64,000 nucleotides of DNA from an uncultured bacterium (lineage in GTDB: Bacteria > Patescibacteriota > Patescibacteriia > UBA1558 > GWA2-36-10). The stretch lies in contig CAINYB010000007.1 of assembly GCA_903855135.1 (NCBI GenBank), forward strand, positions 8,402-72,401. The letters are read 5' to 3'. This document shows positions 5,698 through 61,986 of the stretch, piece after piece. The notes beneath the pieces were generated by a model that saw only the letters and a list, made by a program, of their open reading frames with translations, did no database searches and was not told where the DNA came from. The stretch's first letter is position 1; the number at the start of each line of letters is the position of its first letter. The position numbers and the translations under genes are program-made.

Positions 5698-7164
5698 TTA
5701 ATTTTTTGCAAAATAGGTCTCAATCGCCTGCTCTGCTTCTGTGCATTTTATAAAATCTTTATAGCCAGGAGCACTCTCATCTGGCATCATACCAGTGCTA
5801 CAGTCATTGCTCCATAATAATTTATCTTCATATGCATGTAATGGCCCTAGACCACCAGCGCTACAAAATGCCCCGTTGTCTGCACCAAAAGCTAAAAACT
5901 TTTCGTTAGACCAATTGTTATAATTTGGTGTGATTGTTAAAACAAAAGCTCCGTTATACAAAAATTGTTTAATGCTACCAAAATTTGCTTCTTTTTTAAA
6001 ATCAGCAAATTCTTTATTAAAGCCATCTACTTGCGCGCATTCATTTGGATCACCAAAAATATCATACCCTAAACTTTGTTTATTTATTTCTTTATACAAA
6101 CTCCAATTTTCTATTTGGCCGATGTTATTTTCAATAAATTTAAAATTATCCCAAATTTTTTGATGCATACTTAATTCATCGCCACGAGTATAAATAATAA
6201 ATAAATTATTATCTTTTATAAAAACTGTTAGTTTATCATATGAAAAATCTTCATCTTTACTATAGCCATAAAATACTTGGGCTGGATAATTATCAATTAA
6301 AATATTTCTTTCAAATTTTTGATAATACATATCACTCTTAGCATTTTCTGCTTCTTGCCATTGTTTAATAGTTTTAAAACTAGTGTTCTCTGAGACCAAG
6401 ATGCTCATCGCACCATAACCCTCAGTATTAATATCTTCAAAGTAAACAAAATCCGGATAACCAGAACAATATTCAGGCATTATTATGCCGTCTGGATAAT
6501 TAAAAAAATAATGATATTTATCATTGATATATAAATTATCATAGCTATAAATAGCTGAAAACTTTTTAGTAAAATTAGCTATTTTAAAACTACGCAAAAT
6601 ATTATCTTGCACAACTGGGTTACTAATAAAACGAGTATTAATTTCAAATAAAACATTATTTTTAATAAAAACTGTTTTTTTACTCTGCCCTTTTTCAATA
6701 ACCACTTGACTTTGATCTGATATCTCTGAATTAGGATAGCTACTCTCTAAATAAGTAACCAAAGCTTTATTTCCGTCTGTTTTGATTTGTTTTTCTACCA
6801 CGCGCTTTTTATTGAATTTCTGTAAATATTCATTTTCTTTTTCCAACCATTGGTCTAAAGAGGAAAAATTTTGTGGTGAAGTAACTATTGAAATTCCATC
6901 AAAATAAAAATCTTGTGGATATTCTTCAACAAAAACCGGATTATCATTACCAGAACAATGAGATTTTTGCTCTAAATACTTAGGATATTTAAAAGAATAA
7001 TTATAAGTTTGATTATGATAAGTATTTAATAACTTATTTTCTTTATTTTTTTGGTAAAACAAAAAGCTAGCCAAAATAATAATGGCTATTATGCTAATAA
7101 TTAAAATTTTATTCTTTTTAAACATAGCTATTTTATTTACTCTAATTATATAAAAATTTGACAA
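5698..7164 (-). CDS. Secreted/membrane-anchored hypothetical protein
   Basis: 488 aa; N-terminal signal-anchor (MFKKNKILIISIIAIIILASFLF); Asn/Tyr-rich. Confidence 0.35.
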   Translation of the reverse strand: MSNFYIIRVNKIAMFKKNKILIISIIAIIILASFLFYQKNKENKLLNTYHNQTYNYSFKYPKYLEQKSHCSGNDNPVFVEEYPQDFYFDGISIVTSPQNFSSLDQWLEKENEYLQKFNKKRVVEKQIKTDGNKALVTYLESSYPNSEISDQSQVVIEKGQSKKTVFIKNNVLFEINTRFISNPVVQDNILRSFKIANFTKKFSAIYSYDNLYINDKYHYFFNYPDGIIMPEYCSGYPDFVYFEDINTEGYGAMSILVSENTSFKTIKQWQEAENAKSDMYYQKFERNILIDNYPAQVFYGYSKDEDFSYDKLTVFIKDNNLFIIYTRGDELSMHQKIWDNFKFIENNIGQIENWSLYKEINKQSLGYDIFGDPNECAQVDGFNKEFADFKKEANFGSIKQFLYNGAFVLTITPNYNNWSNEKFLAFGADNGAFCSAGGLGPLHAYEDKLLWSNDCSTGMMPDESAPGYKDFIKCTEAEQAIETYFAKN

Positions 7165-7186
7165 TTATCGCCACATCTCACATAAT
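7158..7186 (+). promoter_or_regulatory. sigma70-type promoter (TTGACA-17-CATAAT), copy A of a duplicated ~72-bp promoter module
   Basis: TTGACA 7158-7163, CATAAT 7181-7186; 45 nt identical to 8527-8571. Confidence 0.55.
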
Positions 7187-7213
7187 GCATTTATATTAAC
7201 TAAATAAAAATTT

Positions 7214-8515: not shown

Positions 8516-8540
8516 AATATTATACTAATTATATAAAAAT

Positions 8541-8569
8541 TTGACAATTATCGCCACATCTCACATAAT
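8541..8569 (+). promoter_or_regulatory. sigma70-type promoter, copy B of the duplicated module
   Basis: TTGACA 8541-8546, CATAAT 8564-8569; near-identical to copy A. Confidence 0.55.
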
Positions 8570-8595
8570 GGACTTATATTAACTAAATAAAATTT

Positions 8596-18047: not shown

Positions 18048-18359
18048 CTATGCTTGTTCGGCCATAATTTCTTTGACTAAAGGTCGTAATTCAGATCTAT
18101 AAACCACTCGATCGAGTCTTAGCTCTATTCTGTCTAACCTTCCTTCTACCTTATCTAATCTCCCGTCTACTTGATTAAATCTTTCATCTACCTCGTTAAA
18201 TCTTCTATCTACGTCGCTAGCCAAGACAGAAACTGCCTCGGCGACTTCTTGAACTGAACCGGAAAGTTCTTGGACTGAGCCAGAGAGTTTTTGAACTGAA
18301 CCGGAAAGTTCTTGGACTGAGCCCAAGATCTCTTGATTTGTTATTTCACTTTTCTTCAT
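18048..18359 (-). CDS. Small repeat-containing coiled-coil protein
   Basis: Tandem SGSVQELSG repeats x4 and RF/RL-D heptad-like repeats (RFNEVDERFNQVDGRLDKVEGRLDRIELRLDRV); ~27-nt DNA tandem repeats 18240-18340. Confidence 0.4.
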   Translation of the reverse strand: MKKSEITNQEILGSVQELSGSVQKLSGSVQELSGSVQEVAEAVSVLASDVDRRFNEVDERFNQVDGRLDKVEGRLDRIELRLDRVVYRSELRPLVKEIMAEQA

Positions 18360-21668: not shown

Positions 21669-21830
21669 AAAAAATTTAACAATTAGTCTGATTATGACAG
21701 TAAAAGTTAAAAAAATCAAGTTAAAAAATACTACATTTTCCTTCCCCGTAGGGGGAGGAAATTAAATATAAAACAAAAATACCCCTGCTCCCCGCTTTCG
21801 CGGGGATGACAAGGGTATTTTAAAATGTTT

Positions 21831-22639: not shown

Positions 22640-22723
22640 GTCACTCTGTCTTCGACTCCGAGATCGCTCAGACTCGAGAAGAATTTATTTCAGGGTCTGA
22701 TTCTGAAACAAGTTCAGAATGAC
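22640..22723. repeat. R1 repeat element copy 1 (~85 nt) in the rpsB-tsf spacer
   Basis: Near-identical to 57090-57174 (about 3 differences). Confidence 0.7.
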
Positions 22724-30124: not shown

Positions 30125-30314
30125 TAGCCGAACGTTTCGATCATGGGGATTCGTACTTGTACGGTCCCTTTTTCTTTTGTAAAAAATCTGACTGTGCTAT
30201 AATACAAGCATCAATATTTAGAATCTCATATGCGAAGTTTAATCCCCGCGTACGCGGGGATTCTAACGGATAAGTATATTGAGTTCAAAAAAATAAATTA
30301 AAATAAAAAATAAA

Positions 30315-45644: not shown

Positions 45645-45729
45645 AGGCTAAATATAGCATAATTTTTATGATAAAAAAAGACCGCCCCGGTGTCATCCTC
45701 GCGTATGCGGGGACCGGGGCGGTATCAGA

Positions 45730-56722: not shown

Positions 56723-57070
56723 ATGCCAAGAGTAAAAAGAGGCGTCACTCACGTCAAACGTAGAAAAAATATTTTGAAAAAGACCAAAGGTTATAACTGG
56801 GGTCGCAAAAATTTAATCAAACTTGCCCACACTGCTATCAATAAAGCTGGTCAACATGCTTTAGCTGATCGTCGTAAAAAGAAACGCGTCATGCGTCGTT
56901 TGTGGCAAGTAAAATTAAATGCCGCTGTCCATACCTTAGGTTTGAACTACTCCAGATTCATTGATATGTTAAAGAAAAATAACAGTGAATTAGACCGTAA
57001 AGTTTTGAGCCAAATCGCAGAAACTAGAAGTGCAGCTTTTGCTAACTTGGTCGCTGCTTTAAAGAAATAG
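56723..57070 (+). CDS. rplT: 50S ribosomal protein L20
   Basis: MPRVKRGVTHVKRRKNILK...RRLW L20 signature. Confidence 0.9.
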   Translation: MPRVKRGVTHVKRRKNILKKTKGYNWGRKNLIKLAHTAINKAGQHALADRRKKKRVMRRLWQVKLNAAVHTLGLNYSRFIDMLKKNNSELDRKVLSQIAETRSAAFANLVAALKK

Positions 57071-57089
57071 AAATACCCCCTGAATTATC

Positions 57090-57174
57090 GTCACCCTGTC
57101 TTCGACTCCGAGATCGCTCAGACTCGAGGAGAATTTATTTCAGGGTCTAGATTCTGAAACAAGTTCAGAATGAC
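57090..57174. repeat. R1 repeat element copy 2, embedded in the loop of the rplT terminator hairpin
   Basis: Flanked by the IR aaataccccc (57071-57080) / ggggggtattt (57181-57191) followed by a T-run; near-identical to 22640-22723. Confidence 0.7.
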
Positions 57175-57261
57175 GTGTGAGGGGGGTATTTTAATTTTAC
57201 TAAAGCTCATCTGAATCAAACGTCTTCCGCCAAAGGCGGAAGCGACAGAAGGAATGTTTTT

Positions 57262-59726: not shown

Positions 59727-61160
59727 TTAAATATTTTGTTCAATAAAGTTTCCTAAACTAAATAATTTTTCTTCTTGAAAACTATCAGCTAAAAGCTGGA
59801 TACCGATTGGCAAATTATTTTCATCTACTCCCATTGGTAAACTTAATCCACAGATACCAGCGATATTAGCACTAACTGTAAAAATATCTGCTAAATACAT
59901 ACTTAAAGGATCTGCTAATTTTTCTCCAAGCTTAAAAGCAGTCGTAGGAGTAGTCGGCGTCAACAAGACATCTACTTTAGCAAAAACTTTTTGAAAATCT
60001 TGTTTAATCACAGTACGTAATTTTTGCGCTTGTTTATAATAAGCATCATAATAGCCAGCCGACAAAATATAAGTGCCAAGCATAATACGACGTTTACTTT
60101 CTGCAGAAAATCCTGCCGCCCGCACTTTTTTATACCAGTCATCAAGATTTAAATCATTATTTTCGTGATGACCAAAACGTAAACCATCAAGTCGCGCTAA
60201 ATTTGAACTCACCTCTGCTGGCATCAAAATATAATAAGCAGCTAAGGCATATTCAGTATAAGGCAAAGAAACTTTTTCCACAACTATTTTTTGTTCCTGT
60301 AAAAAATCAATCGTTTTATCTAAGGCTTGTTTAATACTTGGAGCTAAGGCATCACTAAAATATTCTTTAGGCAAACCAACTTTTAATTTACGTGGCTCTT
60401 GATTTTTTAATAAGCTAAAATAATCTGGTACAACATTATAGCTCGCGCTTAAATCGTATTTATCGCGGCCGGCCATGATTTGCAATAAATAAGCCGCGTC
60501 TTTAACGCTCTTGCTAAATGGCCCAATCTGATCTAAAGACGAGGCCATAGCCATCGAGCCATAGCGAGAAACTCGTCCGTAGCTTGGCTTTAAACCTACT
60601 AAACCGCAAAAAGCAGCCGGCTGGCGGATAGATCCACCCGTGTCTGTTCCTAAGGCTATCGGCGCTAAATCAGCCGCTATAGCAGCTGCTGAGCCGCCAG
60701 AAGAGCCGCCAGGCACCCGGCTAGTATCGTGAGGATTTAAAACTGGCCCAAACGCTGAGTTTTCATTAGAAGCTCCCATGGCAAACTCATCACAATTTGT
60801 TTTACCTAAAATAATCGCTCCTTGATCCTCTAATTTTTTTATTGCTGTGGCTGTATAAGGCGCAATATAATTTTCTAGCATCTTGGAAGCGCCAGTTGCT
60901 CTTTGGCCTTTAACTAATAGAATGTCTTTGATGGCGATAGGCACACCAGTTAATTTTGCCATCTCACCTTGAGCAATTTTACTATCTGCTTTTTTTGCCT
61001 CTGCTAAAACCTGATCATTTATAGAAATAAAAGCATTAAGCTTATCATTTTTTATTTTATCCAAATAATAGCTTGTTAATTCAAAACTAGAAAAAGTTTT
61101 ATTTTTAAAACCAGCTAAAATTTGCTCAATATTTAAATTACTAAATTTATTTTCTGTCAT
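59727..61160 (-). CDS. gatA: Glutamyl-tRNA(Gln) amidotransferase subunit A
   Basis: Amidase signature GGSSGGSAAA; Ser-cisSer-Lys triad context; start placed at MTENK (the tracked ORF extends into the direct repeat). Confidence 0.9.
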   Translation of the reverse strand: MTENKFSNLNIEQILAGFKNKTFSSFELTSYYLDKIKNDKLNAFISINDQVLAEAKKADSKIAQGEMAKLTGVPIAIKDILLVKGQRATGASKMLENYIAPYTATAIKKLEDQGAIILGKTNCDEFAMGASNENSAFGPVLNPHDTSRVPGGSSGGSAAAIAADLAPIALGTDTGGSIRQPAAFCGLVGLKPSYGRVSRYGSMAMASSLDQIGPFSKSVKDAAYLLQIMAGRDKYDLSASYNVVPDYFSLLKNQEPRKLKVGLPKEYFSDALAPSIKQALDKTIDFLQEQKIVVEKVSLPYTEYALAAYYILMPAEVSSNLARLDGLRFGHHENNDLNLDDWYKKVRAAGFSAESKRRIMLGTYILSAGYYDAYYKQAQKLRTVIKQDFQKVFAKVDVLLTPTTPTTAFKLGEKLADPLSMYLADIFTVSANIAGICGLSLPMGVDENNLPIGIQLLADSFQEEKLFSLGNFIEQNI

Positions 61161-61170
61161 ACTTTTATAC

Positions 61171-61233
61171 ATTGTCATGCTGAACTTGTTTCAGCATTTC
61201 TTGTTGTCATGCTGAACTTGTTTCAGCATCTCT
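61171..61233. repeat. 61-bp direct repeat (left) flanking the GIY-YIG insertion; internally a tandem duplication of gtcatgctgaacttgtttcagcat
   Basis: Identical to 61583-61644 except one g/a change. Confidence 0.75.
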
Positions 61234-61236
61234 TAT

Positions 61237-61521
61237 TTACAAATCTATACTTAAATCTTTCCAGTTTGGATTTTGTTGATTAATCAAATTTATTTTCCAT
61301 TGTCTATGCCATCTTTTTAATTGTTTCTCTCTTTCTAGAGCATCTACAATATTATTCGTTATCTCCAAATATATTAATTTATCTACATTATATTTAGCGG
61401 TAAATCCTTTTATTATTTTTTCTTTGTGTTCTTTTATCCTTCTATAAATATTATTGGTTACACCAATATATAAAACATTATTATTTTGATTTGTCAGAAT
61501 ATAAACGTAATATTCTTTCAT
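61237..61521 (-). CDS. GIY-YIG nuclease domain protein (stand-alone, UPF0213-like)
   Basis: 94 aa; YVYILTN...LYIGVTNN...R..EH (GIY-YIG core). Confidence 0.7.
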   Translation of the reverse strand: MKEYYVYILTNQNNNVLYIGVTNNIYRRIKEHKEKIIKGFTAKYNVDKLIYLEITNNIVDALEREKQLKRWHRQWKINLINQQNPNWKDLSIDL

Positions 61522-61582
61522 ATATGCTTTTCTTCATTTATTTTTAGATCCTGAAATAAATTCAGGATGACTATTTACTTAT

Positions 61583-61644
61583 ATTGTCATACTGAACTTG
61601 TTTCAGCATTTCTTGTTGTCATGCTGAACTTGTTTCAGCATCTA
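61583..61644. repeat. 61-bp direct repeat (right) flanking the GIY-YIG insertion
   Basis: See the left repeat; overlaps the gatC stop codon. Confidence 0.75.
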
Positions 61645-61986
61645 TTTTTTTGTCCGCCTCGCGTCGAAGCGGGCTAATACTTGCGGAACTACTAAGTAGT
61701 CGTCTTCAACTTTTACAAATTGATCCTTAATACTTGCATCACTTTGACCCACCTCATCGGCTCTTAATAAATATTTCCCCCCAGATTTTTCCCCGGTCGG
61801 GGAAAAATCTGAAAATCCTAGTTCACTGATAAAAGGCTCAACATTTTTTAAATTTAAACTAGTCAATTTATCAAAATATGCCAAAACATCACTTAACTGG
61901 TTAGGAAAAGCTGCGATCTCTTCAGCACTTAATTCTAGCTTAGCTAAATTAGCAATTTTTAAAATTTCTTCTTTATTTAAACTCAT
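61642..61986 (-). CDS. gatC: Glutamyl-tRNA(Gln) amidotransferase subunit C (with C-terminal extension)
   Basis: N-terminal EEILKIANLAKLELSAEEIAAF GatC fold; immediately downstream of ligA and upstream of gatA. Confidence 0.8.
   Translation of the reverse strand: MSLNKEEILKIANLAKLELSAEEIAAFPNQLSDVLAYFDKLTSLNLKNVEPFISELGFSDFSPTGEKSGGKYLLRADEVGQSDASIKDQFVKVEDDYLVVPQVLARFDARRTKK

Follow-up and report, generated by a model that had tools for sequence, protein, structure and literature searches.

A short repeat in two translation-gene loci of a Patescibacteria-type genome is probably a gene-less doublet of Ssn-related hairpins

The window (the whole 64-kb stretch of DNA analysed here) carries two copies of a short repeat, R1, which is probably an inserted, gene-less doublet of Ssn-related motif (SRM) hairpins, a REPIN-like and non-autonomous relative of an ssn cassette. 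Each copy consists of two inverted hairpin units whose heads point outward, one of them interrupted by a nested 33-nt core. Units of the same kind surround, in the same heads-out geometry, a gene in the window that codes for a homologue of the GIY-YIG protein SsnA, and related genomes lack R1 at the corresponding places. The first-pass annotation of this DNA had described R1 as either a small mobile or selfish element or a structured RNA of ribosomal-protein operons; the composite nature of R1, the relationship of its units to Ssn repeats and the nesting of the insert go beyond that description.

Copies, anatomy and contexts of R1

The two copies lie where the first-pass annotation had placed them, at 22640-22723 (84 nt, copy 1) and 57090-57174 (85 nt, copy 2), both in plus-strand coordinates, and match in 82 of 85 columns (96%), with two substitutions and one 1-nt indel. 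R1 is counted twice in the 64-kb window, with one homologue elsewhere, at locus L006 in another uncultured bacterium. The features in and around the copies are as follows.

56723-57070, plus strand: rplT (L20), the last gene of infC-rpmI-rplT
57071-57080, plus strand: 5' arm AAATACCCCC of the outer rplT terminator-type stem, where relatives have a terminator
57090-57174, plus strand: R1 copy 2, consisting of the left hairpin unit split by the 33-nt core, a TA spacer and the right unit
57090-57098, plus strand: left unit, 5' part GTCACCCTG, with the head GTCAC; compared with the uninterrupted unit GTCATCCTGAATTTATTTCAGGATC
57099-57131, plus strand: 33-nt core TCTTCGACTCCGAGATCGCTCAGACTCGAGGAG; 58% GC in a 35% GC genome
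57132-57147, plus strand: left unit, 3' part AATTTATTTCAGGGTC
57150-57174, minus strand: right Ssn-related unit, GTCATTCTGAACTTGTTTCAGAATC on the minus strand, with its head outward
57181-57198, plus strand: 3' arm GGGGGGTATTT of the outer rplT stem (57181-57191) and the T-rich tail TAATTTT
22640-22723, plus strand: R1 copy 1, with its core at 22649-22681 and its right unit at 22699-22723

R1 is a composite of two inverted hairpin units with their GTCA heads pointing outward (GTCAY-N-CTGAA...TTCAG-N'-RTC), separated by TA in copy 2 and by a single T in copy 1, and the left unit is split by the core. The left end (GTCACCCTG / AATTTATTTCAGGGTC) corresponds to the unit GTCATCCTGAATTTATTTCAGGATC, which is uninterrupted at 61547-61571 and here has 33 nt inserted after CCTG. 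The internal pairing that had been noticed at first pass (accctg...cagggt) is real, and is formed by CCCTG...CAGGG. The same units surround the 94-aa GIY-YIG gene (61237-61521). There are two exact copies of the terminal 22-mer TCTGAAACAAGTTCAGAATGAC of R1 and four reverse-complement copies with two mismatches, at 61174-61227 and 61586-61639; none of 100 shuffles gave such a recurrence, so that the link drawn at first pass between the end of R1 and the repeats around the GIY-YIG gene is well founded. The two mismatches are compensatory, changing TCTGAA/TTCAGA to GCTGAA/TTCAGC.

Seven uninterrupted units of this AT-type are present in the window, all with a GTCAT head and an 8-bp stem (AT-N-CTGAA/TTCAG-N'-AT) in which N and N' covary (T/A, C/G or G/C); the base after the stem is C in five of the seven and T in the other two. 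The 25-nt unit folds as DNA with an energy of -5.3 kcal/mol (z -3.3). The homologue at L006 consists of left unit, core and right unit, is located after a sigma-factor gene, and shows three compensatory pair changes in its two stems relative to R1. Homologous AT-type units also adjoin unrelated genes in other genomes. Inserts are nested in the loops of other units as well, with a second unit within a unit at L035 1810-1960 and an insert of about 55 nt at L036 1880-1960, and nesting is therefore general in this hairpin-repeat class.

Copy 2 begins 20 nt downstream of the rplT stop codon (57068-57070), and the arms AAATACCCCC and GGGGGGTATTT pair around the whole of it in both RNA and DNA folds, with 11 predicted pairs between them; the bracketing by these arms and a T-run had been noted at first pass. 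With the outer arms included, the RNA fold of copy 2 has an energy of -53.1 kcal/mol (z -4.9 versus shuffles), and the DNA fold a z of -3.7. The outer stem has the G+C-rich stem and T-run of an intrinsic terminator and is located just past the stop codon, but 100 nt separate its arms where a terminator has a short loop (3-8 nt), and a consensus terminator scanner does not call the composite because of this distance. The compact predicted fold of the insert makes continued termination at the rplT composite plausible.

Copy 1 occupies the rpsB-tsf spacer, 3 nt past the rpsB stop (22727) and about 30 nt ahead of the tsf start (22607); both genes are on the minus strand, and copy 1 is consequently transcribed as the reverse complement. 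Its transcript folds better than shuffles (z -4.2). There is no flanking inverted repeat at copy 1 and it lies within no hairpin, so just one of the two copies is inside a terminator-like stem. Rfam searches of the window and ten other loci, at gathering and permissive thresholds (E up to 10), gave nothing overlapping R1 or the core, the only matches being to tmRNA, tRNA and an SRP RNA.

The ssn-like cassette and the Ssn class of repeats

The GIY-YIG gene and the units next to it form a compact cassette in the right part of the window, with the following features.

61237-61521, minus strand: ssn-like gene coding for a 94-aa single-domain GIY-YIG protein, between gatC and gatA
61547-61571, minus strand: uninterrupted unit GTCATCCTGAATTTATTTCAGGATC upstream of ssn, head outward; the subtype of the R1 left unit, without the core
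61174-61230, plus strand: two tandem units GTCATGCTGAACTTGTTTCAGCAT[T/C] on the downstream side of ssn, heads outward; part of a 71-nt direct repeat
61586-61642, plus strand: second pair of tandem units, in the other 71-nt repeat arm, between gatC and the cassette

The protein matches Pfam PF01541 over residues 4-78 (E 1.3e-20) and is 47% identical over 89 aa, without gaps (E 1e-32), to the 94-aa SsnA orthologue of N. gonorrhoeae, the gene of which sits inside NTS arrays; NCBIfam and PDB searches with the window protein gave no specific family. The 71-nt direct repeats around the cassette (61160-61650) are 94% identical, with two tandem hairpin units each. The longest gatA open reading frame begins within the 71-nt repeat, and other assemblies call gatA six residues shorter; some population contigs end at these repeats. 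The order gatC-ssn-gatA is found in all population contigs with no cassette polymorphism, and since the cassette is fixed at gatC-gatA in every one of them there is no sign of its ongoing movement.

Homologues of the ssn-like gene with about 70% identity are found in Parcubacteria, Moraniibacteria, WOR-3 and Desulfobacterales, and AT-type units are present on both sides of the ssn homologue in the window and in L035-L044. The cassette flanks were compared in three groups of loci. In the L036 and L042 types, as in the window cassette, the units closest to the gene have their heads outward, and in L035 they are mixed. The Desulfobacterales cassette has 35% GC within flanks of 53-54% GC, has no other gene aboard, and lies between two respiratory-type operon genes, a combination of low GC content and location that points to its horizontal arrival.

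The defining account of the Ssn/NTS system, for the NTS repeats of Neisseria and the wider SRM class, is that of Chenal et al. 2025 (PMC11893778). NTS has the sequence CGTCATTCCCGCGMAVGCGGGAATCYRG (CGTCATTCCCGCGMAVGCGGGAATC), and SRM are repeats that form hairpins, have an oriented 5' flank and lie on either side of ssnA, which codes for a 94-aa single-domain GIY-YIG protein of the Ssn family cd10448 (PMC11893778). SsnA binds the hairpin as single-stranded DNA only and cuts a few bases upstream of it; the three bases ahead of the NTS palindrome are the most important for cleavage, and the C after it for binding (PMC11893778). Mobility of hairpin-ssn-hairpin units is put forward by Chenal et al. 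2025 as a hypothesis only (PMC11893778).

The repeats in the window share many of these features. The 25-nt unit is an imperfect palindrome within the 20-50 nt range of SRM and is predicted to fold as a single-stranded DNA hairpin; the units are oriented, with the 5' bases GTCAT in all seven uninterrupted units and GTCAC in the left unit of R1, and resemble NTS in their GTCAT head, first and last stem bases and trailing C. They occur in alternating and tandem arrays, and those on both sides of 61237-61521 bracket an ssn homologue whose 94-aa single-domain product has the form of the Ssn family. Unlike in NTS, the stems of the units are AT-rich (CTGAA/TTCAG), one R1 unit has a nested 33-nt insert, and the host has a Patescibacteria-type genome rather than that of a Neisseria; unlike in the NTS/SsnA system as described, a gene-less inverted doublet recurs as a unit, and insertion polymorphism and residence in terminator loops are documented. 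The published SRM string HGTCWYN(0-2)YYVSBRHN(0-5)WNVSBRGN(0-2)RNCYNB matches none of the seven AT-type units, with NTS matching as a control, and in the window it finds only a GC-type unit at 45691 (45691-45717); the case for class membership accordingly comes from head, tail, hairpin form and gene association. On these grounds, the R1 units are most probably AT-rich variants of the SRM class (NTS/dRS3-like) and not canonical members. As far as we found, the AT-rich Patescibacteria units, the gene-less doublet, its presence and absence, the residence in terminator loops and the invariant 33-nt insert all go beyond the published account (PMC11893778).

Empty sites, hairpin loops and the origin of R1

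Relatives are without R1 at both sites. In L045-L047, the S2 protein is 94% identical to that of the window and the DNA 85-89% identical over 20 kb, and the rpsB-tsf spacer is 40 nt long without R1, compared with 119 nt in the window; TAAACAAACAAAAATATG is conserved on one side of the spacer, and the last 18 nt ahead of the tsf start are kept. In three relatives whose L20 is 80-85% identical to that of the window, two of which share its VanZ neighbour, the spacer after rplT is 42-69 nt long, compared with 191 nt in the window, and the rplT terminator is a plain hairpin with a 3-6-nt loop. A strictly identical empty rplT stem was not found in these three, and the stem sequences differ between species; the comparison therefore shows a terminator at that place and not an identical empty site. 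The empty-site terminators that had been envisaged at first pass are thus present as plain short-loop hairpins, but not with the same stem. The insertion points of R1 are approximate because the spacer sequence has diverged around the empty sites.

These sites indicate that R1 is an insertion, acquired after the split from the nearest sampled relatives, and they favor the first-pass proposal of a small inserted selfish-type DNA repeat. A contig of ERZ1426837 has a 98% identical L20 cluster in which the next gene ends 109 nt past rplT, compared with 191 nt; it may represent an R1-free allele in the same species, the 82-nt difference being about the size of R1.

A single hairpin is lodged in the same manner in the terminator of the tsf gene.

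21778-21820, minus strand: tsf terminator-type stem AATACCCTTG/CAGGGGTATT with a T-run, and the NTS-like hairpin GTCATCCCCGCGAAAGCGGGGAG in its loop

At this site L045 has a plain terminator, AAAACACCCCCtgacGGGGGTGTTTTTTT, that is, AAAACACCCCC-tgac-GGGGGTGTTTTTTT, whereas the window has AAAATACCCTTG-[TCATCCCCGCGAAAGCGGGGAG]-CAGGGGTATTTTT, with the NTS-like hairpin nested in the loop. The GC-type hairpins at 45697 and 51326 are also nested within outer stems. Residence in hairpin loops thus recurs without being a requirement, as copy 1 of R1 lies outside any hairpin. The first-pass suggestion that terminator hairpins are targeted accordingly holds in part: copy 2 is in a terminator-type loop, the NTS-like hairpin is in the tsf terminator, and the core is at or near the apexes of hairpins in most of its 22 copies, but copy 1 does not conform. 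G+C-rich palindromes of the CCCCGCG-N2-5-CGCGGGG type are found in the window at 2630, 23434, 30244, 40655, 45697, 50731, 51326 and 58093, and several of them sit inside outer complementary arms; the one at 30244 is within an 85-nt stretch missing from L045.

R1 would be a repeat at the DNA level and not a gene, made of two inverted, heads-out SRM hairpins. As its units appear to be AT-rich SRM and the GIY-YIG protein resembles SsnA, R1 can be seen as the ends of the hairpin-ssn-hairpin cassette (61.2-61.6 kb) abutted with 1-2 nt between them and with the gene absent; having the arrangement of the cassette without its gene, it would be a miniature, non-autonomous relative of it, which entered the rpsB-tsf spacer and the rplT terminator loop after the lineages split. 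By analogy with SsnA, we infer that the R1 hairpins are bound and cleaved by Ssn and that R1 is mobilised in this way. Each hairpin, when single-stranded, would be bound by the 94-aa GIY-YIG protein encoded in the window, which would cut a few bases 5' of the GTCA head; the two predicted nicks would then closely flank R1, one on each strand. No strand-transfer chemistry is known among GIY-YIG enzymes, and for this reason the copying would have to be completed by host repair or by annealing of single-stranded DNA, either at replication forks or following DNA uptake. At rplT, the outer stem could still close because the R1 RNA would fold back on itself, which probably makes the insertion tolerable, and we infer a neutral or terminator-compatible effect of R1 on RNA.

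Other explanations account for parts of these observations. REP-type hairpins in other bacteria act on 3' ends, and both copies of R1 are in translation-factor or ribosomal operons, with transcripts that fold better than shuffles (copy 2 z -4.9, copy 1 z -4.2); together with the 3'-end action of REP-type hairpins elsewhere, this is what would be expected if R1 were a functional RNA module of ribosomal-protein operons, such as a 3'-UTR stabiliser, a processing site or a complex terminator. We consider such a module improbable, and with it the first-pass alternative of a structured RNA appended to these operons. The transcription of the two copies in opposite senses makes a dedicated ribosomal-operon RNA unlikely, relatives have these operons without R1, homologous units adjoin unrelated genes elsewhere (including the sigma-factor gene next to the L006 homologue), and there is no Rfam match; any effect on RNA is more likely to be a by-product. 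There is very little likelihood that R1 is a conventional MITE, meaning an element derived by deletion from an insertion sequence that has terminal inverted repeats and a DDE transposase. Neither copy has a target-site duplication (flanks cacttt/ttttta and attatc/gtgtga), there is no transposase among the Pfam-scanned open reading frames of the window, and the ends are autonomous hairpin units that are also found single, in tandem or flanking a nuclease gene, although the inverted ends (GTCA...TGAC), the small non-coding form and the variable presence among relatives are all MITE-like.

The REP, BIME and REPIN repeats associated with RAYT (Bertels and Rainey 2011, PMC3116915; Nunvar et al. 2010, PMC2817692) are similar to R1 in being short imperfect palindromes with an oriented tag, and in the REPIN the inverted doublet is the apparent unit, as in R1. 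The RAYT system also resembles the ssn cassette in that the presumed responsible gene is flanked by its own repeats, but the protein associated with R1 is a GIY-YIG nuclease rather than a Y1 transposase, and the tag differs. That R1 is itself a REPIN mobilised by a RAYT (a Y1/HUH transposase), with the GIY-YIG gene a bystander attracting repeats, is highly improbable: the inverted hairpin doublets with an oriented 5' tag do have the look of REPINs, and a resemblance of Ssn to IS200/IS605 has been pointed out (PMC11893778), but there is no Y1 transposase among the 42 Pfam-scanned open reading frames of the window, the tag is GTCA(T/C) and not GTAG or CGTC, and the units travel with the GIY-YIG gene, and no other, into Desulfobacterales as a compact low-GC cassette. 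Transposases and integrases were likewise not found among these 42 of the window's 66 open reading frames; for the remainder, precomputed Pfam annotation of orthologous loci was used, or they were left unscanned.

With R1 read as a gene-less SRM doublet, the comparison of filled and empty sites, both for the doublet and for a single NTS-like hairpin, is new to the Ssn/NTS system, as are the low-GC cassette carried into a higher-GC Desulfobacterales genome and the repeated nesting within terminator and repeat hairpins. Taken together, they open mobility and a preference for single-stranded loops to direct testing, and they bring into the system the ultra-small Patescibacteria, organisms presumed to rely on taking up DNA.

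The nested 33-nt core and other repeats

The boundary of the core is ambiguous by 1 nt because there is a G on either side, but its net insertion is exactly 33 nt, as given by the neighboring uninterrupted units in the window and in L002. In the left flanks no target consensus was found other than a G at -1, which is equivalent to the 1-nt ambiguity. An exact 24-mer search with one genome per species found the core in seven genomes labelled Zixibacteriota, Gammaproteobacteria, Saccharibacteria, Uhrbacteria and unclassified bacteria, these being the labels of the deposited bins. A metagenome scan with 12 of 32 core positions left free gave 12 further distinct loci, with three substitutions at the 144 free positions, and four matches that are obviously due to chance. 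A profile search of all the collected DNA shows 22 copies and no decayed ones, with seven substitutions in 726 nt, none of them compensatory; the collection scans were exact-pattern searches and are biased towards intact copies.

The hosts of the core belong to several phyla, with GC contents of 33-53%, and it is found in at least 11 different host contexts, most often in or next to a local hairpin loop. In Ssn-type hairpins it is always located after CCTG and in constant orientation, and in L008 it is in frame within a low-complexity part of a 950-aa open reading frame, to which it adds 11 residues. Exact and degenerate searches gave no matches in viral contigs and only a weak chance match, to Rhodococcus, in plasmids and phages; literature searches using the core and the GC-type unit as strings found nothing. 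As single-stranded DNA, the core strand as written folds no better than shuffles, and this together with the non-compensatory nature of the substitutions means that hairpin stability does not explain its conservation.

Several trivial or known origins of the core were discarded. It contains TTCGACTCC, but ARAGORN finds no tRNA-like fold in any locus. The bases that it seemed by eye to share with a sequencing adaptor or Tn5 end belong to variable host flanks, and independent assemblies have the same locus with the core (L001, L026, L027), which speaks against an adaptor artefact. Neither inspection by eye nor Rfam gave a fit to a hammerhead-like or other ribozyme.

The sole recurrent neighbor of the core is a small GIY-YIG gene, present at five of 20 loci; four of the five genes belong to a different, tRNA-linked clade and are 0.1-1.4 kb away, and the association is suggestive only. 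Members of this tRNA-linked clade (L014 1-560, L016 2500-3100, L004 2300-2862 and L003 5850-6350) adjoin tRNA genes, with duplicated tRNA pieces on both sides, and in L014 a palindrome with the 33-nt core interrupts the upstream tRNA fragment. At L024 4282-4414 the core occurs twice, in separate host hairpins some 100 nt from each other, and the matching place in the related L019 (4660-4690) has a shorter palindrome, TCGAGTCAGACTCGA, that resembles the 3' half of the core. At L004 1959-2281 the core hairpin is located directly 3' of a bacterial large SRP RNA gene (RF01854, 192 bits).

We suggest tentatively, as a possibility that we do not favor outright, that the core is an independent micro-element mobilised in trans, a near-invariant parasite of a parasite that would enter the apexes of hairpins, especially Ssn-related ones, and pass horizontally between phyla. 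Its movement could depend on a GIY-YIG-type nuclease, or on single-stranded DNA that is taken up by transformation and anneals at conserved repeats of hairpin form. Should this reading hold, few known mobile DNA units would be as small as the core. How a short non-coding sequence stays identical across phyla and lands in hairpin apexes is the question that it raises, and the answer could reveal a new way of moving DNA. Rickettsia palindromic elements insert in frame into genes, and the core is similar to them in being once in frame in a coding region (L008). Insertion sequences such as IS1397 and ISKpn1, which target REP hairpins (Tobes and Pareja 2006, PMC1525189), are a precedent for a core inside the hairpins of another family. 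Unlike these insertion sequences and the Rickettsia elements, the core is only 33 nt long, non-coding and near-invariant across phyla, and it differs from the REP-targeting insertion sequences in having no known partner IS.

Two further repeats in the window are worth recording. Four in-register copies of a 21-nt tandem repeat are located at 18232-18336 inside the open reading frame 18048-18359, and the 465 nt around them have no counterpart in L045. A 76-nt direct repeat (93% identical) is present at 7137-7212 and 8520-8595 and includes TTGACA and a TATAAT-like box, its copies preceding a methyltransferase gene and an amidohydrolase gene; the ssn homologue of L035 has a gene neighborhood similar to that of this repeat.
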